Made by a program: the position numbers and the translations under genes | The notes under the pieces: model-generated | Database searches by the model: none | Seen by the model: the letters and a program-made list of their open reading frames with translations, nothing else | What the model was told of the DNA's origin: nothing | Source of the DNA: Patescibacteria group bacterium | GTDB lineage: Bacteria; Patescibacteriota; Microgenomatia; UBA8517 | Assembly (NCBI GenBank): GCA_041742135.1 | Contig: JBGSJG010000001.1 | Coordinates: forward strand, 3,151 to 67,150 | Direction: 5' to 3' | DNA: 64,000 nt | Shown: one piece after another, positions 1 through 36,050 of the stretch | Layout of the letters: each line of letters starts with the position of its first letter | Numbering within the stretch: position 1 is the stretch's first letter

Positions 1-92
1 AATATGTGATTATTTAAGTTTGAACACAATTATTCCAAGTAATAACAATATATCCTCTGGAATTCTCTATGAATTAGCAAAATCTGTAAAAA

Positions 93-905
93 ATGGATAG
101 AAAAATTATTGTAATTACCGGCGTAAGTTCAGGAATTGGAATGGCTTTTGTAAAAAAGGCTCTTAATTCTGGTGAATTTACTGTGATTGGATTAGGTAGA
201 AAAGACAATAAAGAGGTTAACGATCCAAATTATTTTTTCTATAAAGTTGATTTATTAGATGAGAGAACAATTAAGGTCGCTGTGGACAAAGTAATAAAGA
301 AATTTAAAAGGGTTAATGTTCTGATTAACAACGCTGGCTTTGCATATAGAAGCACATTCGAGGATCTGTCTTCTAAAGAAATGAGGGAACAATTTGAAGT
401 AAACCTTTTTGGCCCAGCAGTATTGGTTAATCTTATATTGTCTATTATGAGAAAACAGAATACAGGACATATTATAAATGTTAGCTCTGTTGCCTCAAGT
501 GTGAATACTCCAACTTTAGGATATTATGCTGCCACAAAAGTTGCATTAGATAAGCTAAGTGAGGTTCTAAGACAGGAAGTTAAAGCTTTTGGCATATCTG
601 TGAGTCTTCTAATCCCTGGTGCTGTTAAAACTAACTTTGGGAAGAACATTAAATTACCAAAAAACTATAAAAAGTCATCTTATAATAATTTATATTCCGA
701 ATGGGAAAATAGATTCCGTAATTTTTTCAATATAAGAAATACATCTGATGACGTTGCAGAAGGAATACTCTCCCTTATTAATAAACCGCAGAATATTAAA
801 TATATAAATAATCGTGATTGGGTTATGTGCACTCTGGAAAAATATCTACCAAGACAACTATTTCATTATTTATTTTTAAATTATTTTTACAGAAATGAAG
901 GCTAA
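93..905 (+). CDS. short-chain dehydrogenase/reductase (SDR) family oxidoreductase
   Basis: Rossmann motif ITGVSSGIGMA near N-terminus, NNAG motif, catalytic YAATK (YxxxK) in translation. Confidence 0.8.
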   Translation: MDRKIIVITGVSSGIGMAFVKKALNSGEFTVIGLGRKDNKEVNDPNYFFYKVDLLDERTIKVAVDKVIKKFKRVNVLINNAGFAYRSTFEDLSSKEMREQFEVNLFGPAVLVNLILSIMRKQNTGHIINVSSVASSVNTPTLGYYAATKVALDKLSEVLRQEVKAFGISVSLLIPGAVKTNFGKNIKLPKNYKKSSYNNLYSEWENRFRNFFNIRNTSDDVAEGILSLINKPQNIKYINNRDWVMCTLEKYLPRQLFHYLFLNYFYRNEG

Positions 906-1470
906 AAAATTTGGGTTTTTCTTTACAGTTAAATATATCGACAAAAACATCGAGGCCTATCGAGAAGTGTTAAAAGCTACAGATAAGCTTGGTGCTCAAA
1001 TGTATAATTCAAAACTTATTGAAGACTATCCAAAGTCAGTAAGCAAATTAAAAAACGATGGTAAATCTTTGGTTGATGGTACACAAAGGCTACTGCGTTC
1101 TGTAGATTTCGTAATTTCCTTTTTCAGCGACAAATCACGCATTGTCTTTTTGCAAACAATAATGGCGCTAGAGAACAAGACGCCAGCATTGTGTTTAGTC
1201 CATGAAAGTGCGTATAACAACTTTCCAGAAACTCTGCTTTCTTACGGCAAAGACTATGTAAAAGTTAGGAAATATAGTTCGACAAATCAGCTTCAGGAAA
1301 TTGTTACTGAATATATTGAAGATCTTGAACCCCCCAAACGAAGATTCAATGTTGTACTAAAAACAAAGACTTTAAAGCAACTTGAACAGCTAACCCGTGA
1401 GCTTGACATGACTAAGGCAGAACTATTAAGACGACTGATAGATAAAGAATACAGGAGGATGTTTGATTGA
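895..1470 (+). CDS. hypothetical protein; N-terminal nucleoside 2-deoxyribosyltransferase-like (Rossmann-like) region, C-terminal ribbon-helix-helix-like tail
   Basis: Pattern VDFVISFF..., ALENKTPALCLVHES resembles NDT/Rcl-like nucleoside-binding fold; C-terminal KTLKQLEQLTRELDMTKAELLRRLI is RHH-like; 11-nt overlap with upstream SDR gene. Confidence 0.35.
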   Translation: MKAKKFGFFFTVKYIDKNIEAYREVLKATDKLGAQMYNSKLIEDYPKSVSKLKNDGKSLVDGTQRLLRSVDFVISFFSDKSRIVFLQTIMALENKTPALCLVHESAYNNFPETLLSYGKDYVKVRKYSSTNQLQEIVTEYIEDLEPPKRRFNVVLKTKTLKQLEQLTRELDMTKAELLRRLIDKEYRRMFD

Positions 1471-1979
1471 TGAAAAAAAATGATGGTCAAAACCAAGTTC
1501 AGTTAGTTAAGGACTACGTCAGTAAGTGTCATAAAAAAGGTAAAACTGTTCTTATTGTCAAAGGTGTATTTGATCTTATCCACCCTGATCATATACAAAC
1601 ACTTGAGCGATTAAGCAAACTTGCCGATGAACTCATCGTCTTACTAATCCCTGATTGGGCTGCGTCACTCATAAAGCCTGGTAGACCTATCTTGCCAGAA
1701 TCTGCCCGACAAAAGGTTGTAAGTAACTTAAGACCTGTAAAAAAGTGTTTTATTGATTATGATTCACGAGATAGCAAAACGAATAAGTACTCTAAAGATA
1801 AAGATATCGAGCTGTTGAAACAAATTTCACCTGATATGTGGGCTTTAAGTGAAAACAACTTTTCCAAATTTGAAAAATATGATTTAGGTAAAATTGAGCT
1901 CATTAAGTATGAGGAAGGAGTGAATTATTCCACAACCAAAATTATTAGTAAGATTTTAGAAAAATATGCAAAAGCTTAA
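1467..1979 (+). CDS. cytidylyltransferase-like nucleotidyltransferase (RfaE domain II / glycerol-3-phosphate cytidylyltransferase family)
   Basis: HxGH motif in GVFDLIHPDH, downstream ESARQKVVSNLRPVKKC matching ERxxxLxxLxxVDxV pattern of CTP_transf_like family; 4-nt overlap with upstream gene. Confidence 0.6.
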   Translation: MMKKNDGQNQVQLVKDYVSKCHKKGKTVLIVKGVFDLIHPDHIQTLERLSKLADELIVLLIPDWAASLIKPGRPILPESARQKVVSNLRPVKKCFIDYDSRDSKTNKYSKDKDIELLKQISPDMWALSENNFSKFEKYDLGKIELIKYEEGVNYSTTKIISKILEKYAKA

Positions 1980-2817
1980 GAATTCCTTAATTTCCATTAT
2001 TATTCCTACTCACAACAGGGATTATATTTTGTGGAAAGCCATTCAAAGTATTCAGCAGCAAACTTACTCAAACTGGGAGTTGATAATAGTAGATGACAGA
2101 TCTACTGATGCAACCTACAAAATGATGCGTGAGTTCAAGCAAGACAAACGTATAAAATATATTCTTAATGAGTATAAACACAGTCCAGCCGGTGCCCGTA
2201 GATTTGGACAGAAAAATGCAAAAGGTGATCTGATTGCATACCTTGATAGCGATAACAGTGCTTCTAAATTGTGGTTACAAGAAATAGTCAATTTGTTTGA
2301 AAGCGATAGCAGTGCAGTTTTTGCGTATACCGCATTAAATTTTAAGGTTGATTATGTTGATAAGAATGAAAATATAGTAACACTGATTTCAGAAGTGAGA
2401 TTTGCGAACCCTCCTACAGTAGCCATGTTATGGTCTCATGAGTTTGAGGGAGATCCGAATGGTTTTGTTCACCGGTCTGATGTAGACAAAGCAATTGTCT
2501 GGGATGAAAAACTGGATTTGTATGAAGATTATGATTTTTCACTTCAACTTGCCAAGAAATACCCCAAGGGTATGCGATACATAAATCAAGCATTGGTGAA
2601 TTATGTCAGGAGATATGGTGAAGCAGGTATTTGCAACGATGCTACTTATAAATCTCTGTTGAAAAACCTTAAATACCTTAACAGAAAACACAGTAACCTC
2701 CCTCAATGGAACAAAAGTGACTGGCACAAAGAGGAAATAAGAAAGTTCAAAGAATTAGCTGACCAAGGACTAAAACCTATAGATAGGATATTGGCTAAGT
2801 ATGGAAACAAAAATTAA
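1966..2817 (+). CDS. family 2 glycosyltransferase
   Basis: Canonical GT2 N-terminus ISIIIPTHNRDYILWKAIQSIQQQTYSNWELIIVDDRSTD. Confidence 0.8.
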   Translation: MQKLKNSLISIIIPTHNRDYILWKAIQSIQQQTYSNWELIIVDDRSTDATYKMMREFKQDKRIKYILNEYKHSPAGARRFGQKNAKGDLIAYLDSDNSASKLWLQEIVNLFESDSSAVFAYTALNFKVDYVDKNENIVTLISEVRFANPPTVAMLWSHEFEGDPNGFVHRSDVDKAIVWDEKLDLYEDYDFSLQLAKKYPKGMRYINQALVNYVRRYGEAGICNDATYKSLLKNLKYLNRKHSNLPQWNKSDWHKEEIRKFKELADQGLKPIDRILAKYGNKN

Positions 2818-3682
2818 AAAGGCACTTCTCTATAATCCCAGCATTGGAATTGACGTCAAAAATATTACAGTCACTTCTCTACTTGGAGGAAAAGAATCCA
2901 GTATCTATAAAGTCACGAATCAAAATGACAAATGTGTTGTTGTAAAAATTCCAAAAACTGATTGGCAAAAGAGAGAGATCCATGTTTTTCGAGATTATTT
3001 AAGTAAACTTGATATCAGTACTCCAAGATTTTTAGGTGAGTACAATAACGAAGTTTTGATTATAGAGTTCTTAGAGGATTGCAAAACTTTAAACAAGCTG
3101 TCTTTGAGTGAACTAAAGCTTCTGAGAGAGTGGATTATTAATAAACATAGTAAGTCGTGCAAATTATTCACAAATGAATCAAGGAGTTTATTAAAACATG
3201 CTGAATGGATGGTGAATCATCCTATCAAGCAAATCTTAAGTAATAAAAGTATAGAATCTGATGTTAAAGGGAAGTTGTTAGAGTTGCAACCCAATTTACT
3301 TAAGGCATTAGACAAAATTGATCTGCCAATGGTGCTCGATCACTCTGATCTGGAAATCCAGAACTTACTTTTTGACACTAAGAAAGAGGATGTTTGTGTT
3401 TTAGATTGGGCAAATGCAATTAAGTCACCAGGTTTTTATGATATTGCACAATTTAGAAAATTAGCAAGACAATATGTTTCAAATGATGCCGATAGTTTAG
3501 TGTCCGAGCTAATGAAAGAAGTCGGACTCGCAGATAATAATGATCTATTGGAGACATTTGCACTTATAAAAGAAATCAATCTATTAAGTTATTATTTAAA
3601 AGAAAGAGGTGTAGAAAAAGATAATAAAAGTGAAATTGACTATGCGCGTAATATAATTACAGAATATGAAGAACAAAATTAA
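2801..3682 (+). CDS. phosphotransferase enzyme family (APH/choline-kinase fold) small-molecule kinase
   Basis: Brenner motif region VLDHSDLEIQNLLFD and downstream VLDWANA (D of DFG-like) typical of aminoglycoside-phosphotransferase fold kinases. Confidence 0.6.
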   Translation: METKIKKALLYNPSIGIDVKNITVTSLLGGKESSIYKVTNQNDKCVVVKIPKTDWQKREIHVFRDYLSKLDISTPRFLGEYNNEVLIIEFLEDCKTLNKLSLSELKLLREWIINKHSKSCKLFTNESRSLLKHAEWMVNHPIKQILSNKSIESDVKGKLLELQPNLLKALDKIDLPMVLDHSDLEIQNLLFDTKKEDVCVLDWANAIKSPGFYDIAQFRKLARQYVSNDADSLVSELMKEVGLADNNDLLETFALIKEINLLSYYLKERGVEKDNKSEIDYARNIITEYEEQN

Positions 3683-4121
3683 AGTTAGACTACGACTAAT
3701 AATTATCAAGGAAGAAAAGTTGTTGGCATATTATGATTCGATGGATGATTATTATTTCTACATTGGCGGTAAGCTTGAGTTTGGAGAAACCATTGAAGAT
3801 GGATGGAAAAGAGAAATTCAAGAAGAATTGGGCGACGATGTTGAATTCAAATTCAAGAAGATCTTATACATTAGAGATTTTATCCTCCCAGAGAAAAATG
3901 AACACAGCCTTGAGCTATTTATTTTAGGAGACATTAACAAGTTTATGGAGATAGATGAAAGACCAGATCCAGAATATGATGGCAAAAAGTGGCCAAAATG
4001 GTTGAATCTTAATAATTTGCCAGACAACCTCTACCCTAAGCCCTTAACTAAAAAGATCGTACAGGATTATAAAAATGGATTTCCAAACAGCGGAGAGTAT
4101 GTTGGCAGAATGGATAGTTAA
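3666..4121 (+). CDS. NUDIX hydrolase
   Basis: Nudix box GGKLEFGETIEDGWKREIQEELG (GX5EX7REUXEEXGU). Confidence 0.75.
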   Translation: MKNKIKVRLRLIIIKEEKLLAYYDSMDDYYFYIGGKLEFGETIEDGWKREIQEELGDDVEFKFKKILYIRDFILPEKNEHSLELFILGDINKFMEIDERPDPEYDGKKWPKWLNLNNLPDNLYPKPLTKKIVQDYKNGFPNSGEYVGRMDS

Positions 4122-4125
4122 GTAT

Positions 4126-5061
4126 CTATAAAGAAGCGAGTGTATTAACCACAGAGTTTAAAATAAGCTTGTCTCTGTTTAACTTTCCATTAGTAAAGTG
4201 TTGATAAGGGTCTTTTGTTTTTATTCCAAACTTCTTCTGAACTAACACTCCTAAGTCTGGGTATTCAGATGGAACTAAATCAGTCAGTGCTTTAGGTATT
4301 TCCAGATCAGTATCAATTGTAATTGACCTTTCCTGCTTCTCATTTTCTATTACACAAACGCTAAGACCAAAAGTGTTGTGTTTTTCATGCAAGATCGCAT
4401 TCCCGCTTTCAATAGAGACCAAAAACTTTGCTTTCTTATTTTTTATTTTCTTCTTCAAGTCTTCTAACCTGTTTATCGCACCTTGGTATGTTTCCTCGAT
4501 TGAATAAGGCTGCTCTGATATACCAGAGTCGGTTTTTACACCTACTACATTGCATCTATGTCCAAATTCTCGCAGCGCAAGAGAAGTGGCTGAAGTCTTT
4601 ATTATATTCTCAGAGCTAATATATACATTTGGCAAGCTTTTGTAGTAATCTGTGATTGCGTCAATTTTATTGTTTATTACAATTGGTTGCATAGCATTTA
4701 TTTCAGAATCGTAGCTAATTTCAGGAGCTGGGTTGAGCAAAAATATATCTCTGTTTAGTGTGAAGGCAAATCCCATCTCCATTAAACTATTTCCTCCAAT
4801 GTAGTTTTTAATTTCATTCTTATCGTAATTGAGAACCAAAATCCCTTCACTTTGTTTTATAAAATCATAATGTTTGCGGATGTAGTTATTTTCAACCTTC
4901 CTTTTGACAGCTTCTTTTGAAGATCCAGCCTCTTTATATCCTTGTAGTTCATTTGCACTTCCAGGCACATACACATTGAAGCCTTTTTCGGTAAGTCTAT
5001 CCTTCCACTCAAGCATCTCTTTGTGGAATTTCATGCTTCCACAGATTGTTATATTTATCAT
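4126..5061 (-). CDS. fusion protein: N-terminal nucleoside 2-deoxyribosyltransferase-like domain + C-terminal YjjX-type inosine/xanthosine triphosphatase-like domain
   Basis: N-term ICGSMKF...GILVLNY...GGNSLMEMGFAFTLNRDIFLL (NDT/DUF4406-like); C-term GISEQPYSIEETYQGAINR resembles YjjX GVPEQPFGSEETRxGAxNR. ORF-track start 5157 trimmed to internal Met (MINITICG) to avoid overlap with divergent CYTH gene. Confidence 0.45.
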   Translation of the reverse strand: MINITICGSMKFHKEMLEWKDRLTEKGFNVYVPGSANELQGYKEAGSSKEAVKRKVENNYIRKHYDFIKQSEGILVLNYDKNEIKNYIGGNSLMEMGFAFTLNRDIFLLNPAPEISYDSEINAMQPIVINNKIDAITDYYKSLPNVYISSENIIKTSATSLALREFGHRCNVVGVKTDSGISEQPYSIEETYQGAINRLEDLKKKIKNKKAKFLVSIESGNAILHEKHNTFGLSVCVIENEKQERSITIDTDLEIPKALTDLVPSEYPDLGVLVQKKFGIKTKDPYQHFTNGKLNRDKLILNSVVNTLASL

Positions 5062-5112
5062 CTCAAATATTCTAACATAGGCCGGGGGTTGCAGGGTGAT
5101 ATAATCAGATTT

Positions 5113-5691
5113 ATGTACACAGAATTTGAGGCAACTTTTACAAAAATTAATAAGCAAGAAATAAGAGAAAAGCTGAAAGCGATTGGCGCCAAACTAGAGC
5201 GGAAAGAATTTCTTCAAAAGAGAGTTGTCTTTAACCTTCCAAATGGTCATGAAATTGATGGTGGCTGGCTACGAGTTCGAGATGAGGGAGATAAAATTAC
5301 CATGAGTTTAAAGGTTGTTAAAGAAGGCAAAATAGAGGATCAAAAAGAAATCCAGCTTAATATAGATAGTTTTGATAATGCTGTATCACTTTTAGAAACA
5401 ATAGGTTGCGAAAACAAAGCATATCAAGAGACTAAGCGCGAGCTTTGGAAAATCGACGATATAGAAGTAACTATTGATGAATGGCCTTTCTTGGAACCAT
5501 TTGTGGAAATTGAGGGAAAGTCAGAGGCAGAAGTAAAATCTGTTTCTGAAAAACTGGATTTTGATTATTCACTAGCAAAGTTTTGTGCAGTGGATACGCT
5601 CTATGCAGAAAAATATGGTATTACAGAGGATAGAATAAACAATAACACTCCTAAAATTTTGTTTGGAGGGGCAAATCCTTTTACTGATTAA
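5113..5691 (+). CDS. CYTH-domain protein (class IV adenylate cyclase / triphosphatase fold)
   Basis: N-terminal EFEATFTKINKQEIREKL (ExExK-type CYTH motif) and overall 190-aa size; ORF-track start 5023 trimmed to Met at 5113. Confidence 0.55.
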   Translation: MYTEFEATFTKINKQEIREKLKAIGAKLERKEFLQKRVVFNLPNGHEIDGGWLRVRDEGDKITMSLKVVKEGKIEDQKEIQLNIDSFDNAVSLLETIGCENKAYQETKRELWKIDDIEVTIDEWPFLEPFVEIEGKSEAEVKSVSEKLDFDYSLAKFCAVDTLYAEKYGITEDRINNNTPKILFGGANPFTD

Positions 5692-6250
5692 GATACTCAG
5701 CCAATTTCTCCCAATAGCTTTCTACTTGTGCCCAATATTTAACCATGTCTTCTCTTGAAATTTCTGACTCCACTTTTCCATTATATCCATCTGGAATAAA
5801 CAATTCATTAATAGGTGTGTTTCCTTCTTTGTCTGTTTTTACTGCTTTTTTAGATATGATTCCTGTAACTTGGCTTGGGAAAGTGAGAGGTTCTTTGTTT
5901 GGTTCACAATATGCTAAACAACCTTTAATAGTTACACTTCTATCTGTTTTGCCTTCCATTAGTTTCAAGATGTCTTCAGAAGTGAGCCATTGGTTAATAT
6001 ATTTGATAAAAGGTCCTGGGAATCCATTTAGTGCATTGATGTACCAACCTGCATCAGTAAGGGCAACAGGTTTGCCTAATTTTTCAGCTGCAAATTTGGC
6101 AGAGTAGGAAGCAATTTTTTCTACATCAGTTGATTGAATTTCAGGAGTTTCAATTTTTTGTTGAATTAACTCAACATTAGAATTCTCAAGTACTTTCTGA
6201 GCAATTTCAAACTTATATTTATTTCCTGTTACAAAGATTATTTGTTTCAT
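5681..6250 (-). CDS. Ham1/RdgB-family non-canonical purine NTP pyrophosphatase (ITPase)
   Basis: IIFVTGNKYKFEIAQ N-terminus and TDAGWYINALNGFPGPFIKY core typical of Ham1/ITPA. Confidence 0.7.
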   Translation of the reverse strand: MKQIIFVTGNKYKFEIAQKVLENSNVELIQQKIETPEIQSTDVEKIASYSAKFAAEKLGKPVALTDAGWYINALNGFPGPFIKYINQWLTSEDILKLMEGKTDRSVTIKGCLAYCEPNKEPLTFPSQVTGIISKKAVKTDKEGNTPINELFIPDGYNGKVESEISREDMVKYWAQVESYWEKLAEYLNQ

Positions 6251-6253
6251 AGT

Positions 6254-6553
6254 TTACTTATTAGATTTTACTATTTTTTTAGTTACTTCACCCGCAAATA
6301 ATCTATATGCTGGACGTTTTTCTTTTGGGTACAGATAATATACTCCTAGTGTATCTTTACAATTCGGACAAATTAAATTCTTGTCAGATTGTTTTTCAAA
6401 ATCGACTATTCTGTCTAAATAAATTCGTTTTAAAATGCCTGGGCCATCTTTTTGATAATAAAAAAGATGAGTAGTACAAGACTCACAAGAAATATCATAA
6501 ACTTTTGAAGTTCCTCCTCTGGTTCTCCTAAATTTATCTTTTTTAATTTTCAT
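6254..6553 (-). CDS. small zinc-ribbon protein (CxxC...CxxC), hypothetical
   Basis: CESC...CPNC pair in 99-aa basic protein. Confidence 0.4.
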   Translation of the reverse strand: MKIKKDKFRRTRGGTSKVYDISCESCTTHLFYYQKDGPGILKRIYLDRIVDFEKQSDKNLICPNCKDTLGVYYLYPKEKRPAYRLFAGEVTKKIVKSNK

Positions 6554-6893
6554 TTATTTCAACCTTTATTCCCAGAACTCCATATTTTTCTTCATCTTCT
6601 TCAGAATAGTATTTTCTCATATCGTCGGACATTTTTTCTGGAGTATCGTCTTCGCTCCAACCAGCGTCGTTGCCTTTTATTTTTGAGAACATCTCAACAA
6701 AGTTTTTGAACTGATTTAAGTCAACGATTTTAGTATGAATACGTTCGTTTGTTTCTGTATTTGTAAAAACAATATTGTCTTCAACTTTCAACTTCTGTCG
6801 TTTTTCATCAAACAACCTGATTTCTATTGTTTTTTTGCCAGATTTAATTTTGTTAAATGGCTCTGGTCGCAAGCTCATTTGATGAGTGTTCAT
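6543..6893 (-). CDS. ASCH (PUA-like) domain protein
   Basis: MSLRPEPFNKIKSGKKTIEIR N-terminal pattern typical of ASCH domain. Confidence 0.5.
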   Translation of the reverse strand: MNTHQMSLRPEPFNKIKSGKKTIEIRLFDEKRQKLKVEDNIVFTNTETNERIHTKIVDLNQFKNFVEMFSKIKGNDAGWSEDDTPEKMSDDMRKYYSEEDEEKYGVLGIKVEINEN

Positions 6894-7552
6894 AGTGAGG
6901 AAATTATATCATCCAGTAAGTTTAATGTGGCTGAAGTTCGAGTTGACAAATCACCAGCTAAGGCATCTTTCCAAAGGCTTTCAAAACTTTCTGGTAGTTC
7001 CTCTAAATCATTAATTCTTCTAAAAGCAGTCGTACTTGGTGGTAATGGTTTATTGTTTGATAAATACAAGCCTCTAACTATTTGCCATAAAACATTTGAA
7101 ACATTGAAACCGATGGCTAAGTCATCGTCGTTTTGTTGAGCCGATTCGATTTTTATCTTTGCACTCTTTAGCCACTTTTTAACTCCAGTTATTTCTTTCG
7201 GATCTGGCTTGTAATTATCATAAATATCTTTAGCTTCATTAATTGCTTTTTCGGCAAAGTTGTCTTTATCAAATATCACTTTTGCATCTAGCCACTGGTA
7301 AACGTTCATTGGGTCGTCATGCATTTTTCGAATAAAACCATCTGACGTGTTTGTTTTGATCTCTACAACTATTCCTTCAATTAATTCTTCTTTAAAAGGT
7401 TGTTTTTCATTTGCAATAAGAAGCAAGTCTAAGTCTGAATTTTCAGATTGTTCATCTCTTGCAACACTACCCGTAACTAACAATGTAAGATTATTTTCAT
7501 TACTTCGATAAGTTGAAGCCAGTCTTTCAATTATCTGTTTGTGCTTAGACAT
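6890..7552 (-). CDS. Pol-beta superfamily nucleotidyltransferase (kanamycin/ANT(4')-like fold)
   Basis: LVTGSVARDEQSENSDLDLLLIANE = GS...D.D nucleotidyltransferase motif; 220 aa with helical C-terminal half. Confidence 0.6.
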   Translation of the reverse strand: MSKHKQIIERLASTYRSNENNLTLLVTGSVARDEQSENSDLDLLLIANEKQPFKEELIEGIVVEIKTNTSDGFIRKMHDDPMNVYQWLDAKVIFDKDNFAEKAINEAKDIYDNYKPDPKEITGVKKWLKSAKIKIESAQQNDDDLAIGFNVSNVLWQIVRGLYLSNNKPLPPSTTAFRRINDLEELPESFESLWKDALAGDLSTRTSATLNLLDDIISSL

Positions 7553-7554
7553 AG

Positions 7555-8523
7555 TTGAATTATATAATAAACCTCATGAAAATAATTCTAGGATCAAATA
7601 ACCATGACAAAGTTGAAATAATTAAGAAAGCATTAGAGCAACTACATTTGGAAATTGAGGTTGAAGGCGTGAAAGTTGCTTCTGAAATAACAGACCAACC
7701 TCTGGATAAAGAAACTACTTTAAAAGGTTCTCAAAACAGAGCTAGAAACGCTAGAAAGGCAAAACCAAATGCAGAATTCTACTTTGGCTTAGAAGGTGGG
7801 CTTCACGATTACGGAGAAGGATATCATCTTGTAACATTTGCTACTTTAATCGACAAAAGTGGTAATGAATATACTGGTGAAGGTGTAGAAATCCATCTCC
7901 CAGAAAAAGTTTCAGCGGAAGTTAAAAATGGTGGTTGGTTTGGAGAAGTAATTAGAATTTATGCAAAAGAGTATGACATTGATGAGAACTTAATTACAAG
8001 AGAAACTCCATTTATTGAAGCGATAGAAAGAGCATATGCAAATTACTTAAAAGCCAACGATAAACTTGCAGTCAGAAAAAAATCTATAGCTTTTATTTTT
8101 AATGAGGATAAAGAATTCTTACTAGTCCAACTTCAAACATACGGTCCAGACCATTGGAACATGCCTGGTGGTGGAATAGATGAAGGAGAAGATGCACAAA
8201 CTGCAATGAAAAGAGAATTGAAAGAAGAACTTGGCACAGACAAATTTGAAGTAATTGAAGAATCCAAGATTAAGAATCAATATGATTGGCCAGATTTTGT
8301 AATTGCGGACAGAATTGTTAGGAAAAATGAATATTTTAGCGGGCAGGAACAAACACAATTTATTGTTAAATTTACTGGCGTTAAAGATGAGATTAAAATT
8401 CAAGAAGAAGAAATAAAACAACACAAGTGGGTGAAATATGACGATCTAGAACAATACTTAATATTTCCTGACCAATGGGATAATTTCAAAGTTGTGGTTG
8501 AAACTTCATCATTTGAGCTATGA
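7555..8523 (+). CDS. fusion protein: N-terminal YjjX-type ITPase/XTPase (DUF84) + C-terminal NUDIX hydrolase
   Basis: N-term ILGSNNHDKVEI...ITDQPLDKETTLKGSQNRARNARK matches YjjX NPxK...GAxNRxxNA pattern; C-term Nudix box GGGIDEGEDAQTAMKRELKEELG. Confidence 0.6.
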   Translation: MNYIINLMKIILGSNNHDKVEIIKKALEQLHLEIEVEGVKVASEITDQPLDKETTLKGSQNRARNARKAKPNAEFYFGLEGGLHDYGEGYHLVTFATLIDKSGNEYTGEGVEIHLPEKVSAEVKNGGWFGEVIRIYAKEYDIDENLITRETPFIEAIERAYANYLKANDKLAVRKKSIAFIFNEDKEFLLVQLQTYGPDHWNMPGGGIDEGEDAQTAMKRELKEELGTDKFEVIEESKIKNQYDWPDFVIADRIVRKNEYFSGQEQTQFIVKFTGVKDEIKIQEEEIKQHKWVKYDDLEQYLIFPDQWDNFKVVVETSSFEL

Positions 8524-9014
8524 AATATCCCGTATCAACATTCTCATGGCAAGGCACAGATGTTACTAATACTTGGATAAAGACCACTGAGGTTGAAAAT
8601 TATTCTCCTATCACCCAAGCATACGCAGTTATTTTTAATGATAAAAATGAGATATTAATAGGTAGAGAGAAAGGTAAAGGCAAATGGTGTTTGCCAGGTG
8701 GTCATCCTGAAGATGGTGAGAGTTTAGTTGAAACTTTGTGTCGAGAAGTAGATGAGGAAGTTGATGTTGAAATTGATAATGTTAAGCCACTGGGAGTAAT
8801 TAAAGTAGAATTTGAAGATGCACCAAATAAACCTATTTATCAATCAAGATTTATAGCTAAACTGAAAAAACTGCTTCCTCAGACTCCTGATCCAGCAAAT
8901 AACAATATTTGGGAAAGAAAATTTGTTCCGGCAAAAGACATCAATGAATATGTTAAATGGGGTGAAACGGGGAAAGCAATGTTTAAAGATGCTATTGAAT
9001 TATCCGGACACTAA
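8520..9014 (+). CDS. NUDIX hydrolase
   Basis: Nudix box LPGGHPEDGESLVETLCREVDEEVDV. Confidence 0.75.
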   Translation: MKYPVSTFSWQGTDVTNTWIKTTEVENYSPITQAYAVIFNDKNEILIGREKGKGKWCLPGGHPEDGESLVETLCREVDEEVDVEIDNVKPLGVIKVEFEDAPNKPIYQSRFIAKLKKLLPQTPDPANNNIWERKFVPAKDINEYVKWGETGKAMFKDAIELSGH

Positions 9015-9107
9015 GGCAGCGGTGAGAATGTTTTGAAAAAAAACAACAAAATAGCCAACCTTCATGGGCTATTCTAGAGACCACGGTCTTGCCGCTAGAA
9101 TCTCAGC

Positions 9108-9176
9108 TGCGGGACAGGGACTCGAACCCCGATACCATCCTCCAGAGGGATGTGTCCTACCATTAGACGATCCCGC
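9108..9176 (-). tRNA. tRNA-Gln (anticodon CUG)
   Basis: Reverse complement GCGGGAT-CG-TCTAATGGTAGGA-CACATCC-CTCTGGA-GGATG...GGTTCGAGTCCCTGTCCCGCA folds as cloverleaf; anticodon loop CTCTGGA gives CUG; no encoded CCA. Confidence 0.85.
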
Positions 9177-9230
9177 AATATTAGATCGGCTAACTGGCAA
9201 GCTGTGCTTACCATTAGACGATCCCGCAAT
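9158..9230. repeat. direct repeat: ~22-bp copy of the tRNA-Gln 5' end (taccattagacgatcccgcaat) duplicated 51 bp away
   Basis: Identical 22-mer at 9158-9179 (inside tRNA) and 9209-9230; second copy does not continue into a tRNA. Confidence 0.7.
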
Positions 9231-9326
9231 GTGAGGCAATTTTATCACAATCGCAACCCCATTCAGGAATCACCTGGCAAAATAGAGCTTCAAATAGCCT
9301 AGCTTGCGGCATTCTCACCCCTATCG

Positions 9327-9533
9327 CTAAGATGCTTTTAGCAATTCAGGTTTATCTCCCTGACCATCAGCTGGTTGAGTTCTCTCGACCAGTGGCTGTT
9401 CAACCTGCACTCGACTAGGATACGAAGGCTCTCTCCTTCCACGGTAATTACTCATCCCAGGCAAGGTTATGTGCATAGTGTAAAGCAGCCTTTCGCTCAC
9501 GTCTTGAAAATACGACCCTCTTTCAACACTCAT
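9327..9533 (-). CDS. hypothetical 68-aa sORF within GC-rich non-coding stretch (may be non-coding)
   Basis: ATG preceded by AAAGGGGGTGAG Shine-Dalgarno-like run immediately after a terminator; no recognisable family. Confidence 0.2.
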   Translation of the reverse strand: MSVERGSYFQDVSERLLYTMHITLPGMSNYRGRREPSYPSRVQVEQPLVERTQPADGQGDKPELLKAS

Positions 9534-9553
9534 TCATCTCACCCCCTTTCCAT

Positions 9554-9577
9554 AAAAAAAGAGCCCTTTTGGGGCTC
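9554..9577 (-). terminator. rho-independent terminator (minus strand) downstream of DUF4258 gene
   Basis: Minus-strand GAGCCCCAAAAGGGCTC hairpin followed by TTTTTTT (plus strand shows aaaaaaa-gagccc-tttt-ggggctc). Confidence 0.6.
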
Positions 9578-9670
9578 AATACCTTATGTCTTATAAACCT
9601 ACAATCAGGTGGTGAAATTACAATCTTGAACCAGTTTATACCTGAAGGCGCCAAACAGCTGTAACGGCCG

Positions 9671-9913
9671 TTACAAGGCTCGGTTCCAGACCGAGAGGAT
9701 CAACCACTGTTTTTTTTCGTTTTGCTTAGCCACTACTTCAATCAATTGACTACCAATTTTTTTCTTATACACCCACGCTCCTTTGTTGGCTGCAAAATTT
9801 GATTCATCTGGAGAATACCATGTAGCCCAAGCATCACTTTGAGAAACACCCCGCTCAACTAAACGCTTAAGCGCGTGGTTTGTCCAAATCGTCCCTTTGA
9901 AGTCTTGCATCAA
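9671..9913 (-). CDS. DUF4258-family toxin-like small protein
   Basis: HALKRLVERGVSQSDA... and C-terminal ILSVWNR resemble DUF4258 (H-A-x-x-R-M-x-E-R-G-I ... V-V-T-V-Y-W) architecture. Confidence 0.5.
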   Translation of the reverse strand: MMQDFKGTIWTNHALKRLVERGVSQSDAWATWYSPDESNFAANKGAWVYKKKIGSQLIEVVAKQNEKKQWLILSVWNRAL

Positions 9914-10223
9914 ACATTTCCAAAATTTCTCGGCCCACTAAATAAATTTCATGCTTAATAAATTCCTCAACGTCATCACTCACACGCTCGCGGATGAAAT
10001 CCAAAATTGTTTCATCGTGAGCACGCGTTGCTACGTGATCAATAAATTCCTTGTGGTGCTCGCCCGGCAAGCGCTCCAAGATACAACCCACAACCCTGTG
10101 ATGGACAATTTCGTCAATTAGGCGATAAATTTCACCACGAGCCTCTTGGTCTTTAACGTTCTTTTTGATGAGTGCCTCAAGCTCGGACAAGTCCAGAAGA
10201 TGATCATAAAAGAGCTTAGACAT
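9867..10223 (-). CDS. hypothetical acidic protein, 47-nt overlap with downstream DUF4258 gene (possible antitoxin/partner)
   Basis: ORF only; overlaps toxin-like gene in different frame. Confidence 0.35.
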   Translation of the reverse strand: MSKLFYDHLLDLSELEALIKKNVKDQEARGEIYRLIDEIVHHRVVGCILERLPGEHHKEFIDHVATRAHDETILDFIRERVSDDVEEFIKHEIYLVGREILEMFDARLQRDDLDKPRA

Positions 10224-10243
10224 GATACGTACTTATTGAATCA

Positions 10244-11179
10244 TTATACATCGTTATAGCTAACTGGGCCAAGAGGTATTTTGTTCTCGGCATCATCCAC
10301 AAAAAACAAAATCACTGGTCCTTTTTTATACCTTGGGCCTCCCAGATAATCCATAACCTCCGGGCTTCCACCGAAATGTTTGCCAGTCCATGCTGCAGGA
10401 CCTGAATCAGCAATCGCAGCTACTACAGCCTTGCCATTATCGGTATTTACAATAATAACCTTTCGATATTTATACCAATCACGTAGATAACGAAAGCGAG
10501 TGTTCCAATCTGGAAGATAAAGTGTTTGAACGACCGCGTACCAACGCTCAGTTTCTTCCAAGTCAGGAGTTAGGGCCTCTTGGCTGGGTGCAAAATACCC
10601 CCAAGCTCCCAAGCCCGGAGCGATTCCTTCTTTGAGTATCTCCTCTGGGTCTTCCCCACCGTAATCTGTCGTTTCAGGTTTTTGGGCCGCCAACGTATCT
10701 CCAGGGTAACGGCGCAAATGCTGCTCGGCACCTATTCTGCCGTACGTTTGGTTTAAGTGCTCGCCTTCTAAAGTGGCACGTACTGGAATGCCCGTAAGCT
10801 CACTAATTATTTTTTCCAAATATTTTTCTTCAGTTTCGCTTAAAGGCCTAACTTGCTCCGGTAAAATTTTATGTAAAGCTTCTCTCAAAGACACCGCCCG
10901 GCTCACAGGTGGAAGGTTACTTTTGGCTTTTTCAATTACCTCGTGAGGTGGAGGCAAAAGCGCAAGGGACAAGTTTGGCGAAGAAAGCGCTAAACTACCA
11001 GCCAGTGCTCCGGCCGAAATAAGTTTTGTCGAGTGCTCACGGATTTTTGACAAATCAATCCCTTTTGAGATTAAAAACTGATTGGCATCATGGTATTTAT
11101 CCGAAAAATCCTTTTTAGTCTGAAGGTGTTTTAGTTTTAGTTTGTTACGAAGATCTTCGTGATCAAAGACAGGTTTCAT
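10244..11179 (-). CDS. RlpA-like double-psi beta-barrel (DPBB/3D-like) domain protein, probable cell-wall lytic transglycosylase-related
   Basis: C-terminal KVIIVNTDNGKAVVAAIADSGP...GKHFGGSPEVMDYLG resembles RlpA VxVtNlxNGrsvvvRINDRGP...DLSxaA; start moved to MKPVF (11179) to abut gltX stop. Confidence 0.45.
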   Translation of the reverse strand: MKPVFDHEDLRNKLKLKHLQTKKDFSDKYHDANQFLISKGIDLSKIREHSTKLISAGALAGSLALSSPNLSLALLPPPHEVIEKAKSNLPPVSRAVSLREALHKILPEQVRPLSETEEKYLEKIISELTGIPVRATLEGEHLNQTYGRIGAEQHLRRYPGDTLAAQKPETTDYGGEDPEEILKEGIAPGLGAWGYFAPSQEALTPDLEETERWYAVVQTLYLPDWNTRFRYLRDWYKYRKVIIVNTDNGKAVVAAIADSGPAAWTGKHFGGSPEVMDYLGGPRYKKGPVILFFVDDAENKIPLGPVSYNDV

Positions 11180-11180
11180 T

Positions 11181-12629
11181 CTACCTTTTATTGTACACCG
11201 AAAGGGCATCGGTGAGACGCGTAAGCGTCACGTCTTTGCCTAAAATCTCCATTGATTCGTTAATCGGCGGAGTGCTACGGCTTCCGGCAATTGAGCATCG
11301 CAAGTCCATATAAAAATCGCCAGTTTTAAAATTATTCTCGCCAATTAAATTCGTTAGCTGGCTATTTATGGTTTCCAAATTCCAATCGTTAGTTTTCTCC
11401 AAAGCTTCTAAAGCTTTTGTGACATGCTCTTTATACTTATCAGTCAAGTCGAAAATTGGTTCTTTTTGTTTGTAAAAATATTCAAGATATTCTCCCAATT
11501 CAGATAGTTTTTTAACTCTGGTTTTGACCAAAGGCACAATTTTGTGAAGTATTTCATCTGAGATTTCTTTTGAAACAAATGGTCTAGCCGACACGAAAAA
11601 ATCCTCATCTGAAAGCTTTTGGAGATATTGACTATTAAACCAATCAAGCTTGGCAGCATTAAAAGTTGGGTTTGCTTTTTGTACACCGTTTTGGTCAAAC
11701 GCCGCAACGAATTCAGAAAGCGTAAAAAGCTCTTGATTATCCTTCGGAGCCCAGCCTAAAAGCATGAGGTAATTTAATATCGCGGCTGGTAAATAGCCTT
11801 GCGAAGTCCAAGTATTGACCCCAAAAAGAGCAGTCATGTCGCGCTTGCTGAACTTTTTACCAGTTCTTGGGTCAAGAATCACACTGAAGTGGCCAATGTT
11901 TGGGACAGATTCTCCGAGTCCTTCGTAAACATGCAAGTGAATCGGGGTTGAGGAAATCCATTCTTGGCCCCGAAACACATGTGATATTTTCATCGCGACA
12001 TCATCAACCACCACAGCAAGATGGTATGTAGGAAAACCGTCTGACTTAAGAAGGATCATGTCGGGAACTTCTTTGCCAAAAAATTTAACTTTCTTTTTTA
12101 ATATCCAATCTTCGTACTCAAACACACGATCTTCAGGAATTTTTGCACGGACAACATAAGGCTCTCCATTTTTAACCCTTTCCAATGCGGCTTCAGGGCG
12201 CTCGTCTCGAGCTTTGGGCCGGATTTTTAGTTCTTTGAGTTTTTCATCCGAATCATAAGCGGCCTTAATTTCTTCTTTTTCCCTTTGTGGTGCTTCAAAG
12301 TCATAATAAGCATAGCCATTTTCCACGAGCTTGCGAGCTGCCTCTTGGTAAAGCGTGAGCCTTTCCGATTGCCTGTACGGAGCGTATGGACCACCTTTGT
12401 CTGGGCCTTCATCCCAATCAATCCCAAAACTTCTTAGCACCTTAAATATTTCGGCTTCGGTGTCCGCTCTTGAGCGTTTCTGGTCCGTGTCTTCAATACG
12501 AAGCACAAATTGGCCACCATTTTTTTTGGCATATGCATAATTCCACAGTGCTCTAATCACAAAACCCAGGTGAATGCTTTCTGGTGTTCCTGTTGGTGAG
12601 GGTGCAAAACGAGTTCTGACATCTGCCAT
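11181..12629 (-). CDS. gltX: glutamyl-tRNA synthetase
   Basis: RFAPSPTGTPESIHLGF (HIGH-class motif), VLRIEDTDQKRS, KFSKRD (KMSKS). Confidence 0.9.
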   Translation of the reverse strand: MADVRTRFAPSPTGTPESIHLGFVIRALWNYAYAKKNGGQFVLRIEDTDQKRSRADTEAEIFKVLRSFGIDWDEGPDKGGPYAPYRQSERLTLYQEAARKLVENGYAYYDFEAPQREKEEIKAAYDSDEKLKELKIRPKARDERPEAALERVKNGEPYVVRAKIPEDRVFEYEDWILKKKVKFFGKEVPDMILLKSDGFPTYHLAVVVDDVAMKISHVFRGQEWISSTPIHLHVYEGLGESVPNIGHFSVILDPRTGKKFSKRDMTALFGVNTWTSQGYLPAAILNYLMLLGWAPKDNQELFTLSEFVAAFDQNGVQKANPTFNAAKLDWFNSQYLQKLSDEDFFVSARPFVSKEISDEILHKIVPLVKTRVKKLSELGEYLEYFYKQKEPIFDLTDKYKEHVTKALEALEKTNDWNLETINSQLTNLIGENNFKTGDFYMDLRCSIAGSRSTPPINESMEILGKDVTLTRLTDALSVYNKR

Positions 12630-12667
12630 TTGCTAGAATTTTAGCATACCTTTATACTCGAAGGTGT

Positions 12668-13744
12668 ATGGCACAATCACTTACCTTAATCGCAATTAAA
12701 GCGCGGCAAGTAATCAAATATGGAATAGTGGCATTTTTTGCCATTATCTTCGGCCGCCTTCTGATTATTTTTCTAATTAACGCTTATAACACTTTGGTCC
12801 CAAAGCCACCTCCTCCTCCAACAGTAGGATTTAATCGTTTGGCGGTTTTGCCCTTTCCTGAGCAGACATCAGAGCTTCCTGCTATCCAATATACGGTGAA
12901 TACACCCGACGGTAATTTGCCCAAATACCCCGGACAAATCAATGTTTATTACATGCCTCAAAAAACTGCTAACTTGTTTTCTTTTGATCGAATGAAAACC
13001 TTGGCCGCCTCGTTTGGCTTTACTGGAGCTCCGCTACAAATATCAGAAACACAATATTCCTTTAACCATCCTAAAGTTTCTTCGACCTTTAAGGCTGATC
13101 TTATATACGAGTCTTTCTCGTTGGCATTTAACTTGGCCGAGGACACCAGCCCTCTAAGCCAACGCGCGCCAGATGTTTCCTCTGCTACTGGGACAGTTAC
13201 CTCGGCACTTGTAGCCGCACAGAGTAAGCCTGAAGATCTCTCAGGGCCTGTTACCCACGAATATCTTCGAGCAGAAGGCCAAAGCCTGGTGACAGCACTT
13301 TCGCTTTCAGATGCACAATTAACCAAAATTAATCTTCACCGCGCGCCGGTAATAATCAACGAGGTTGAATATCCCAGTGTTACTGCCGACACTAAAGAAG
13401 CTAATGTTTGGTTTATAGTAAGTGGAAGTGCGGATCGCCAAAAGAAGCTTATCGCTGGTGAATATCATTATTTTCCAATTGATTACACACGAGTCGAAAC
13501 CTATCCTATCAAAAACACCTCTGAGGCTCTAGAGCAGCTTCGTGCTGGAGGTGGCTATATCGCTAATTTGGGGCTTAATCCCGAGGGCGAAATTACAATA
13601 AGATCAATTCGCTTGGCGTACTACGACCCAGCAGTACCATATCTTTTCTATCAACCAGTTTACTCTTTTGAAGGCGATGACGGTTTTGTAGCTTATGTTC
13701 CCGCTGTCACAAGCGAGTATTACGGAGAAGAAACTTCAGAATAA
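12668..13744 (+). CDS. hypothetical membrane-anchored protein (N-terminal TM helix, Pro-rich linker)
   Basis: Hydrophobic N-terminus GIVAFFAIIFGRLLIIFLI followed by PKPPPPPT linker; no family recognised. Confidence 0.4.
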   Translation: MAQSLTLIAIKARQVIKYGIVAFFAIIFGRLLIIFLINAYNTLVPKPPPPPTVGFNRLAVLPFPEQTSELPAIQYTVNTPDGNLPKYPGQINVYYMPQKTANLFSFDRMKTLAASFGFTGAPLQISETQYSFNHPKVSSTFKADLIYESFSLAFNLAEDTSPLSQRAPDVSSATGTVTSALVAAQSKPEDLSGPVTHEYLRAEGQSLVTALSLSDAQLTKINLHRAPVIINEVEYPSVTADTKEANVWFIVSGSADRQKKLIAGEYHYFPIDYTRVETYPIKNTSEALEQLRAGGGYIANLGLNPEGEITIRSIRLAYYDPAVPYLFYQPVYSFEGDDGFVAYVPAVTSEYYGEETSE

Positions 13745-14649
13745 TCAAGCTCTTTCCACTCGAAATTGGTAAAAATCCACTCTAAAAGCTCCTGGCTTTC
13801 TCCAAAGCGGTCTTGGCTTCCCATAAGTGCAATCATCACACGCCTGCCATCACGGTTTGCGTAAGTTACCAAATTTTCACGAGCTTCAGGAGTCCAACCG
13901 GTTTTTACTCCCAGCACGCCAGGCACCTCCCCAAGCAGTTCGTTTCGGTTGGTCATGTGGTGTAAAATCGTTCCGTCTTCATTTTTAGCCACATATTCTT
14001 TTGTGCCTACAATATTGGCAAAGTCTCGCTCAAGCATCGCCTGCGACGCGATTCTTGCCAAGTCTTTTGGGGTAATTTCCTGGCCAGAATCATCAAGTCC
14101 TGAAGGATTTTCAAAATTAGTGGCGTAAGCGTGAAGCTCACGAGCTTTACTATTCATCGCGGCCACAAAGGCACTTTTGCCACCCGGATAACTATTTGCC
14201 AAAACCTCGGCCGCATCGTTAGCTGAGTGAACTAGAAGGCCATACACCAAGTCACGCGCAGATATGTTTTCGTTCCAAGACAGCCCCATTTGAGACCCGG
14301 TAGCTTTGAATACTCCGGTGTTGACTATCTGATCAAGATCGTAATAATCCAAAGCAACAAGCGCTGTAACTATTTTTGTCGTTGATGCCGGGAAAAAAGG
14401 TGACTGGGCATTTTTCTCATAAAAAACCACACCAGAATCAAGGTCGTAGGCATAAACTCCTTGTGCGGAAAGAACTGGAAAAGAGCTCGAGTCCATAAGG
14501 ACGGGAAGCTTACTTACGTTGTAAGTTTTGGCACGAGTTACATATACTGGTGGCTTTTTTGTAAGCGTTAAGCCAAAGGTCGTTACAAACAAAAGCGAAC
14601 AAGCGCTTATAGGAAGTATTCTGGCCTTTATAAATTCAAGCAGTTTCAC
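13720..14649 (-). CDS. D-alanyl-D-alanine carboxypeptidase (S11 serine peptidase, PBP5/DacA-like)
   Basis: SxxK (PASTTK), SxN (HSAND) and KTG (VKTGWT) motifs in order. Confidence 0.8.
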   Translation of the reverse strand: MKLLEFIKARILPISACSLLFVTTFGLTLTKKPPVYVTRAKTYNVSKLPVLMDSSSFPVLSAQGVYAYDLDSGVVFYEKNAQSPFFPASTTKIVTALVALDYYDLDQIVNTGVFKATGSQMGLSWNENISARDLVYGLLVHSANDAAEVLANSYPGGKSAFVAAMNSKARELHAYATNFENPSGLDDSGQEITPKDLARIASQAMLERDFANIVGTKEYVAKNEDGTILHHMTNRNELLGEVPGVLGVKTGWTPEARENLVTYANRDGRRVMIALMGSQDRFGESQELLEWIFTNFEWKELDYSEVSSP

Positions 14650-35960: not shown

Positions 35961-35968
35961 GACTTTTT

Positions 35969-36050
35969 GTCAGGGTAAGCAAAGCTTGGCCCACTACATT
36001 TCGTGTCGGGGTAAGCAAAGCTTGGCCCACTACACTTCGTGTCGGGGTAG
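35969..36050. repeat. tandem 36-bp direct repeats (2 full copies + partial) each beginning with the 3' acceptor end of tRNA-Pro
   Basis: Copy A 35969-36004 gtcagggtaagcaaagcttggcccactacatttcgt; copy B 36005-36040 gtcggggtaagcaaagcttggcccactacacttcgt; third partial copy gtcggggta is the tRNA 3' end. Confidence 0.8.

Follow-up and report, generated by a model that had tools for sequence, protein, structure and literature searches.

Does AT-rich DNA that stops at the 3' end of a tRNA gene mark an integrated element, or did it reach its position in another way? The question arises for a 64,000-nucleotide stretch of contig JBGSJG010000001.1 (positions 3,151 to 67,150; hereafter, the window) from a Patescibacteria group bacterium of the candidate phyla radiation (CPR; assembly GCA_041742135.1), in which an initial annotation had described a genomic island at the left edge ending at tRNA-Gln(CUG), a classic insertion point for integrative elements. 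We favor, with a probability of about 0.55, the reading that this DNA is a ~12.2-kb accessory block (33.5% GC) lying in a variable region downstream of tRNA-Gln and gained by lateral exchange between CPR bacteria, not by site-specific integration.

The compositional break is sharp. GC content is 33.8% over window positions 1-9105 and 43.0% over 9106-64000, and 1-kb windows range from 0.31 to 0.36 over 1-9000 and from 0.38 to 0.49 over 9001-64000, with zero overlap between them (island maximum, 0.358; backbone minimum, 0.378-0.38; Mann-Whitney p = 1.9e-6). At 200-bp resolution, the GC content steps up within 8900-9100, and a two-segment maximum-likelihood GC scan sets the change-point at 9053, between the end of the last low-GC gene at 9014 and the tRNA gene, which begins at 9106. 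When the block is paired with each of six backbone chunks, GC-normalized tetranucleotide correlations are 0.55-0.64, compared with 0.76-0.90 among the chunks themselves. GC1, GC2, and GC3 are all reduced in the block relative to the backbone and, because GC1 and GC2 are lower, the block proteins are AT-biased in composition. Each of the 13 open reading frames (ORFs) called as genes in 1-9014 has 28-36% GC; in the backbone, a GC content below 38% is seen in just 5 of about 75 ORFs. The AT-rich first ~9.1 kb of the initial annotation and its break at the tRNA 3' end were both borne out, and the sliding-window GC and tetranucleotide check proposed there gave a profile that is not uniform; its backbone estimate of 45-53% GC was too high, the measured range being 38-49% and the mean 43%. 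Isolated low-GC ORFs occur in the backbone at 56020-56298 (0.33), 63070-63339 (0.356), and 32375-32980 (0.365), the last of which encodes RecX and adjoins recA.

The block runs past the left edge of the window, as had been supposed, and its far end lies ~3.14-3.21 kb to the left of position 1. In what follows, L-numbers denote other contigs that were compared, and Logan contigs are per-run assemblies of sequencing runs. The left side is tiled by L001, which extends 1856 bp leftwards at a GC content of still 33%, and by L112, which was reached through the host PRAI/RPE protein (P0129, a cluster mate) and extends 3363 bp beyond the window; their overlaps with the window and with each other are 99.96-100% identical. 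The whole block comprises about 12.2 kb with 16 intact genes and one remnant, and the gene order leftwards is Ppx/GppA, a PRAI/RPE-like fusion, a HAD phosphatase, and a 127-amino-acid (aa) ORF (L112 167-550, about 3.2-2.8 kb left of the window). Residues 21-127 of this ORF align at 76% identity with the C-terminal quarter of a phosphoribosyltransferase (PRTase)-like protein, for which the reference is a 432-aa protein that opens the homologous module in L093 and L094, and they are preceded by a new 20-residue N terminus. As the ORF keeps the C-terminal quarter alone, the PRTase-like gene is truncated, and the block is broken off on the left within a coding sequence. Beyond this junction stand 226 bp of 40% GC carrying the end of another ORF. 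On the right, the independent Logan contig L090 matches window positions 5032-9585 at 100% identity, with 0 mismatches and no branching, and overlaps by 55 bp with L091 (9531-10442), which runs on into the backbone.

Relatives were found by a genome scan with the window GltX, which matched CPR genomes from the Microgenomates; the host itself is a CPR bacterium of Microgenomates/Woesebacteria-like type, and its genome has about 43% GC. Over 14 backbone genes (9671-24198), gene order agrees with that in L012, L007, L002, L005, L006, and L008, and protein identity over the collinear genes is 50-74% in L012 (Candidatus Woesebacteria). In L007, L012, L008, L013, L017, and L018, the gltX block is followed by a co-oriented tRNA-Gln(CUG) gene, and the shared arrangement in these six contigs indicates that the gltX-...-tRNA-Gln position is ancestral. 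Because the tRNA gene is on the minus strand, its 3' end faces the AT-rich block. In the synteny comparison suggested in the initial annotation, none of the block genes occurs at the tRNA-Gln locus of the relatives that keep gltX...tRNA-Gln synteny (40-74% protein identity; three of these contigs stop at the tRNA). Beyond tRNA-Gln, gene content differs in every relative, e.g., PGM, Fe-ADH, IMPase, and NUDIX genes in L007; IMPase, dUTPase, ASCH, and NUDIX genes in L003; and SpoU, APH-like kinase, methyltransferase, and BipA genes in L018. Three contigs of metagenome-assembled genomes (MAGs), L008 (11627-11711), L013 (9672-9754), and L012 (13926-14158), stop 11-161 bp past the tRNA-Gln 3' end, and these contig ends suggest that the sequence downstream is strain-variable in several populations. 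Absence of the block from distant relatives is weak evidence by itself, but it is informative that 14 genes are collinear on one side of the tRNA and none on the other.

The left-hand genes of the block belong to a module whose core recurs in >10 metagenome contigs (including L078-L088, L093, and L094) at 50-76% identity, in the order (ASCH)-kinase/GT2-PRTase-like-HAD-PRAI/RPE-Ppx-SDR-191aa-PfkB-guanylate-kinase-like, where GT2 is a family-2 glycosyltransferase, SDR a short-chain dehydrogenase/reductase, and 191aa a 191-aa protein. An operon from the PRTase-like to the guanylate-kinase-like gene is present in L078, L080, L081, L082, L084, L093, and L094 (e.g., L084 1998-9233), often by an ASCH gene, and no published description of the conserved PRTase-like-HAD-PRAI/RPE-Ppx-SDR-191aa operon was found. 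The window SDR is 51-59% identical to the module homologue in L078, L080, L081, and L084; the 191-aa protein, which has no relative among solved structures, is among the best conserved of the module (67-73% identical across copies); GT2 homologues, 35-48% identical, adjoin the module in L080, L081, and L084; and the NUDIX protein that closes the left operon (3666..4121) is 61-62% identical to that of a gene in L085 (949 kb, 33% GC). The contexts of the module differ from that in the window: elsewhere it stands beside ASCH and, in L093, beside ASCH-NDK-M16-ComEC. In L078, L084, and L085, the genes around the module are equally low in GC, and in L093 the module has a GC content of 0.29-0.31, compared with 0.36-0.40 for ComEC, M16, NDK, and ASCH, with the step exactly at the start of the PRTase-like gene. 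In a pairwise comparison of the window with L078, module proteins are 59-73% identical, whereas two shared backbone genes reach 40-41%.

Lateral exchange is the most likely reading in view of the sharp step, the AT-biased proteins, the patchy distribution of the module and its home in low-GC CPR genomes, the identity contrast with L078, the truncated edge gene, and published islands: one report describes hundreds of genomic islands in Patescibacteria and transfers that are mostly intraphylum (PMC12455944). The donors would have been CPR lineages whose whole genomes have about 33-36% GC, entry might have been by transformation or recombination, and arrival would have been followed by local rearrangement and deletion. 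The hydrolase set of the block would sanitize the nucleotide pool, which CPR cells scavenge and do not synthesize.

Several observations weigh against lateral exchange. First, no close relative (>90% average nucleotide identity) with an empty site was found. Second, placement of the left boundary rests on 226 bp and is tentative. Third, the tRNA-Gln neighborhood may be partly old: two distant relatives, L003 (15082-17105) and L007 (17180-21123), carry IMPase, NUDIX, ASCH, or dUTPase genes 3' of tRNA-Gln at a GC content 4-5 points below that of their surroundings, so that a nucleotide-hydrolase neighborhood recurs loosely at this tRNA, although the ASCH and NUDIX proteins of L003 match those of the window at about 26% identity and the genes of L007 give no match, i.e., they are not orthologous. 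Fourth, the fusion of DUF84 and NUDIX domains near the right end of the block looks, from sequence comparison, vertically inherited, with similarity tracking backbone divergence. Its nearest relatives are 77% (L096) and 64% (L097) identical, and Woesebacteria homologues are 53-57% identical; elsewhere it has core contexts, with YchF-S6-SSB neighbors in L097 and L110 and a position near murA, murB, and gyrB in L096. In three other genomes, it is likewise low in GC (0.355, 0.358, and 0.376, compared with about 0.43-0.44), and because this holds in core contexts, low GC is no clean marker of foreignness in this lineage. At least this one block gene is lineage-typical, not exotic.

The third and fourth points lend weight to the possibility that the region is native, i.e., vertically inherited and weakly constrained DNA that drifted to AT under mutational bias and had its gene order scrambled, with no recent transfer. 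This is a serious rival, since DUF84+NUDIX is lineage-like and isolated housekeeping genes of low GC occur in relatives, though we consider it rather unlikely. The fusion is AT-rich whatever its context and its similarity follows the host lineage; the GC dip and NUDIX/ASCH-type genes past tRNA-Gln in L003 and L007 fit as well. Single genes or patches of low GC are found inside Microgenomates genomes of 43-44% GC, e.g., murB in L096 (9778-10773; 0.335) and a stretch in L097 (10001-14506; DUF84+NUDIX, BpsA_C, AdoMetDC, and gltX) with 0.35-0.39, gltX itself having 0.356; because housekeeping genes are among them, GC alone is a poor marker of foreign DNA in Microgenomates. Drift would nevertheless have to produce a sharp ~9-point GC step over 14 contiguous window genes (16 intact genes in the block) in a genome whose backbone genes are almost never so low. 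It also sits poorly with a left-hand module that is patchy, has other contexts elsewhere, and fits low-GC CPR genomes in composition, with the truncation of the module gene at the edge, and with the fact that the resemblance to L078 is closer for module proteins than for shared backbone proteins.

A classical island would be an element with a tyrosine integrase inserted at the tRNA-Gln 3' end, its integrase and distal attachment (att) site later deleted and the truncated gene marking the deletion. The block indeed lies within about 50-90 bp of the tRNA 3' end behind a sharp compositional break, the truncated gene at its far end shows a deletion or breakpoint, and contigs of relatives break right past tRNA-Gln, as at an integration hot spot. 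In tRNA-integrated islands, the integrase is usually tRNA-proximal; here, that position is held by NUDIX genes, and domain scans found no integrase, recombinase, excisionase, or transposase among the 16 intact genes and the remnant over ~12.2 kb. No 12-mer of tRNA-Gln or of its 3' flank, with 1 mismatch allowed, recurs in 10.96 kb (the L001 extension and window 1-9105), and the left junction aligns to the tRNA region no better than shuffled sequence (score, 18-20; shuffle mean, 19.5), 226 bp being legible beyond the junction. Downstream of tRNA-Gln in relatives, no integrase was found, and neither viral contigs nor phage and plasmid records resemble the block. A 13-nucleotide (nt) inverted repeat around the tRNA (9018-9030/9310-9322) was dropped, as about 0.3 such pairs per kb are expected by chance by our own estimate. 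With no integrase, no att repeats, and a left end in a truncated gene, self-mobile site-specific integration is unlikely, and we regard even the decayed version of the classical island as improbable. The initial annotation's reading is thus partly supported, its classic integrative element not: leftward extension over the whole block, which it had proposed, recovered neither an integrase nor a second partial tRNA-Gln repeat, at the left junction or inside.

The duplicate of the tRNA 5' segment that had been noted 51 bp away is real but unsuited to the role of att site. It is a 22-nt direct repeat (9158-9179 and 9209-9230; spacing, 51) consisting of the 5' end of tRNA-Gln and 2 upstream nt, and its second copy is on the backbone side. 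The repeat was rejected as an att site of the island because it duplicates the 5' and not the 3' end of the tRNA, stands upstream, away from the block, and is part of a distinct family of small palindromic inserts, also present at tRNA-Pro and in L007, that is treated below.

A defense island or prophage remnant, whose enzymes would deplete or modify nucleotides during infection, is very improbable. In PADLOC, the NUDIX domains gave weak, generic, and partial matches to the candidate PDC-S07, as did the nucleotidyltransferase to PDC-S09; the latter protein also weakly resembles Hailong HalB (PDB E = 0.005); the ASCH protein matches a phage protein family, and NUDIX, ASCH, and a repressor-like RHH are the only PHROG matches of the block. 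These matches are at domain level and far below family cutoffs (HalB, 28.8 bits versus 190), no HalA-like neighbor of the nucleotidyltransferase or other partner effector is present, and there are no structural, replication, or lysis genes. The block has no relatives in 2.9 million viral contigs, and blastn against phage and plasmid records gave no match, leaving phage origin and known defense systems unsupported. Finally, an assembly or binning artefact that joined two CPR genomes at a conserved tRNA gene, conceivable for a break beside a conserved 72-nt gene in metagenome-derived sequence, can be dismissed almost entirely, because the unbranched contig from another run crosses the junction at 100% identity and continues through its neighbor into the backbone, which makes a chimeric join at the tRNA very unlikely, and the left side is likewise tiled by independent contigs.

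The genes of the block in the window and the features around the tRNA are listed in Table 1. On the left, HAD, PRAI/RPE fusion, Ppx/GppA, SDR, 191-aa protein, cytidylyltransferase-like, GT2, APH/choline-kinase-like, and NUDIX genes overlap and are co-directional. Judged from domains alone, this operon reads like a pathway that would make and transfer a nucleotide-activated sugar or polyol phosphate. The right part consists of three short operons rich in nucleoside-polyphosphate hydrolases, together with ASCH and nucleotidyltransferase genes. With the terminal NUDIX of the left operon included, the block holds four NUDIX domains, two DUF84/YjjX, one Ham1/RdgB, and one CYTH, i.e., eight nucleoside-polyphosphate hydrolase domains within about 5.4 kb. 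Pfam scores are above their cutoffs for Ham1p_like (83.6 bits; cutoff, 22.5), NTPase_I-T (80.3 and 99.9; cutoff, 25), and NUDIX (26.4, 71.1, and 58.3; cutoff, 21.1). None of the hydrolase proteins reaches an NCBIfam equivalog cutoff, e.g., the Ham1 protein scores 139 bits against XTP/dITP diphosphatase (cutoff, 203) and the CYTH protein 41 bits against cyaB, below cutoff. The protein encoded at 4126..5061 matches YjjX in the PDB (E = 3e-7), and its N-terminal half gives a sub-threshold match to Nuc_deoxyrib_tr (2-deoxyribosyltransferase-like; E = 0.0075; 16.8 bits; cutoff, 28.8). RdgB/Ham1, YjjX, and MutT-type enzymes have established house-cleaning roles, by analogy with which the right part may serve nucleotide-pool sanitation. 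Of the initial claim that all 14 window genes are accessory-type enzymes, most stands: 12 have enzyme domains, the exceptions being the 191-aa protein and the 99-aa Zn-ribbon protein.

Table 1. Genes of the AT-rich block and features associated with tRNA genes in the window
Feature	Position	Strand	Remarks
Ppx/GppA-family gene, 3' end	1..100	+	Pfam Ppx-GppA E = 1e-32; rest left of window
Short-chain dehydrogenase/reductase (SDR)	93..905	+	Pfam adh_short E = 1e-42; GC 0.311
191-aa protein	895..1470	+	Weak C-terminal RHH_1 match, E = 0.0036, below cutoff
Cytidylyltransferase-like nucleotidyltransferase	1467..1979	+	Pfam CTP_transf_like E = 9e-11
Family-2 glycosyltransferase (GT2)	1966..2817	+	Pfam Glycos_transf_2 E = 4e-32
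APH/choline-kinase-like kinase	2801..3682	+	Pfam APH E = 3e-7, Choline_kinase E = 3e-6
NUDIX hydrolase, closes long + strand operon	3666..4121	+	Pfam NUDIX E = 8e-6
DUF84/YjjX-type ITP/XTPase fusion	4126..5061	-	C-terminal half NTPase_I-T E = 2e-22; putative start codon
CYTH (triphosphate-tunnel) enzyme	5113..5691	+	Pfam CYTH E = 3.5e-10; putative start codon
Ham1/RdgB non-canonical purine nucleoside triphosphate (NTP) pyrophosphatase	5681..6250	-	Pfam Ham1p_like E = 2e-23
99-aa Zn-ribbon protein	6254..6553	-	Sub-threshold Zn-ribbon matches; lowest GC of block, 0.283
ASCH-domain protein	6543..6893	-	Pfam ASCH E = 1e-10; phrog_19935 E = 1e-21
Pol-beta-type nucleotidyltransferase	6890..7552	-	Pfam NTP_transf_2 E = 9e-7
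DUF84 (ITP/XTPase) + NUDIX fusion	7576..8523	+	NTPase_I-T E = 2e-28, NUDIX E = 1e-19; same protein as P0028, 315 aa
NUDIX hydrolase, last low-GC gene	8520..9014	+	Pfam NUDIX E = 1e-15; GC 0.352
Compositional boundary	9015..9105	.	Intergenic, hairpins; between NUDIX stop codon and tRNA 3' end; change-point 9053
tRNA-Gln(CUG)	9106..9177	-	ARAGORN; Rfam tRNA 57.4 bits; CCA not encoded
29-nt palindromic insert (9180-9208) + 22-nt upstream tRNA 5' copy (9209-9230)	9180..9230	-	Outside island
Extended -10-like box TGATAAAAT	9239..9247	-	10 nt upstream of upstream tRNA copy; putative
Two tandem 36-nt units 3' of tRNA-Pro(GGG) (36041-36112, minus)	35968..36039	+	Insert head + 9-nt tRNA-Pro 3' copy each

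In the tRNA sense, the duplicated region reads TGATAAAAT, 10 nt, ATTGCGGGATCGTCTAATGGTA, AGCACAGCTTGCCAGTTAGCCGATCTAAT, and again ATTGCGGGATCGTCTAATGGTA, followed by GGACAC... into the tRNA. A consensus promoter scan did not call the TGATAAAAT box. Relatives that lack the duplicate (L012, L013, L008, L003, and L017) have TGGTAAAAT/GGTATAAT boxes about 9-14 nt upstream of the intact tRNA-Gln, and for this reason the upstream copy appears to be the original 5' end, promoter included. The same layout is found in L007 (16757-16840), with a 24-nt copy of the 5' end of its own tRNA-Gln; this tRNA differs from that of the window at 5 of 20 positions, and the insert head AGCAAAGCTTGGCC is the same. 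The 15-mer GGTAAGCANAGCTTG has three exact occurrences in the window, two of them directly 3' of tRNA-Pro(GGG), and the tandem units there have an identical sequence in the independent contig L109. The insert is thus present at both tRNA genes of the window (the 5' end of tRNA-Gln and the 3' end of tRNA-Pro) and at tRNA-Gln of L007; no further occurrence was found in the other loci compared.

The inserts share a stereotyped structure. In every case, the GGTA of a tRNA-gene segment is followed directly by a conserved head, AGCA(A/C)AGCTTG(G)CC (GGTA then AGCANAGCTTG; GGTA then AGCAnAGCTTG...), and after the head come a rough inverted copy of part of the tRNA segment and a perfect direct duplicate (22, 9, and 24 nt). 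The direct duplicate restores the tRNA gene and, in L007, matches the different tRNA of that genome. Folded together, copy and insert give a long DNA hairpin with imperfect pairing (z = -3.1 at tRNA-Gln of the window and -2.7 at the other tRNA-Gln site; weaker at tRNA-Pro). Ten matches of the motif in viral contigs, all coding and with no tRNAs, were rejected as consistent with chance, and a literature search on tRNA-flanking partial duplications turned up nothing relevant. One possibility is that the insert is a small element that targets tRNA genes, another that it is left behind by repair in a stereotyped form. We would go further only as speculation, and consider it unlikely, that tRNA genes in Microgenomates are the target of a short, undescribed element, or of a stereotyped repair scar, of which the 22-bp duplicate is one copy, and that such sites could be integrase-free exchange points for AT-rich blocks. 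In L007, a 105-aa GIY-YIG nuclease ORF (16461-16778) ends within the upstream partial copy of tRNA-Gln, and related small GIY-YIG ORFs are found in L018 (2.6 kb downstream of tRNA-Gln), L085, and L048. No trace of a decayed GIY-YIG gene was detected upstream of tRNA-Gln in the window.

Two further observations concern the backbone next to the tRNA. Between the terminator of a DUF4258 gene (9561-9577) and the promoter region of tRNA-Gln lie about 320 bp of 45-49% GC (9231-9555) with no long minus-strand ORF and no Rfam match, the tRNA itself being the sole family in an Rfam scan of 8900-9900. The GltX encoded in the window (gltX, 11181-12629) is 68% identical to that of L002 but 42% to that of L012, the closest relative for the genes flanking gltX (63-74% identity), and this pattern suggests that gltX may have been xenologously replaced within the collinear block.

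If the block was indeed exchanged laterally among CPR bacteria, the locus would offer a clean, fully delimited example of how ultra-small bacteria trade accessory metabolism: a 12-kb cassette without mobility genes beside a tRNA, with one edge gene cut, in hosts that make no nucleotides and carry few mobile elements. The cargo is suggestive, combining an operon conserved over many CPR contigs with an unusual concentration of predicted nucleotide-sanitizing enzymes that fit a lifestyle on scavenged nucleotides. An AT-rich block beside a tRNA is by itself of modest interest, a fairly ordinary case of a known phenomenon; the tRNA-linked palindromic inserts are the least expected item. The locus also advises caution, in that low GC and adjacency to a tRNA are insufficient in these genomes for the call of an integrative element, and a persistently low GC content is a property of some lineage-typical genes as well.

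Comparison with known systems places the parts of the block as follows. (i) The left operon resembles surface-glycan clusters (O-antigen, capsule, or teichoic-acid type) in its co-directional isomerase/epimerase-like, reductase, kinase, cytidylyltransferase-like, and GT2 genes and, as in low-GC clusters of this kind, in a GC content far below that of the genome and a patchy distribution. Unlike them, it has no flippase, polymerase, or transporter genes, and the PRTase-like and Ppx/GppA genes and, in relatives, the PfkB and guanylate-kinase-like genes point to ribose/nucleotide chemistry. (ii) The right part resembles house-cleaning NTP pyrophosphatases in its above-threshold Pfam domains and predicted hydrolysis of ITP/XTP/dITP, oxidized NTPs, and similar compounds; the clustering of eight domains, with two fusions (DUF84 C-terminal and DUF84+NUDIX), is unusual, and a literature search on house-cleaning clusters in CPR bacteria turned up nothing relevant. 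(iii) With tRNA-associated islands (tyrosine-integrase type, P4-like, and integrative and conjugative elements), the block shares deviant composition, accessory genes, and a position directly at a tRNA 3' end; among the distant relatives compared, none has it at the same locus. It differs from them in lacking an integrase and other mobility genes as well as att direct repeats derived from the tRNA 3' part, in ending in a truncated gene, and in that the sole nearby tRNA repeat copies the 5' end on the opposite side. (iv) The block resembles the genomic islands and horizontally acquired regions described from Patescibacteria MAGs in being compositionally defined, in having its nearest homologues in other CPR bacteria, and in its metabolic/accessory content, although neither the PRAI/RPE-Ppx-SDR module nor the NTP pyrophosphatase cluster is among the contents reported in the passages of that work consulted (PMC12455944). 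The block is a compositional outlier, and homologues of its module lie in differently composed CPR contigs and in other contexts; it fits best among the genomic islands or variable regions, defined by composition, that are already on record for Patescibacteria, and it carries no integrative machinery.

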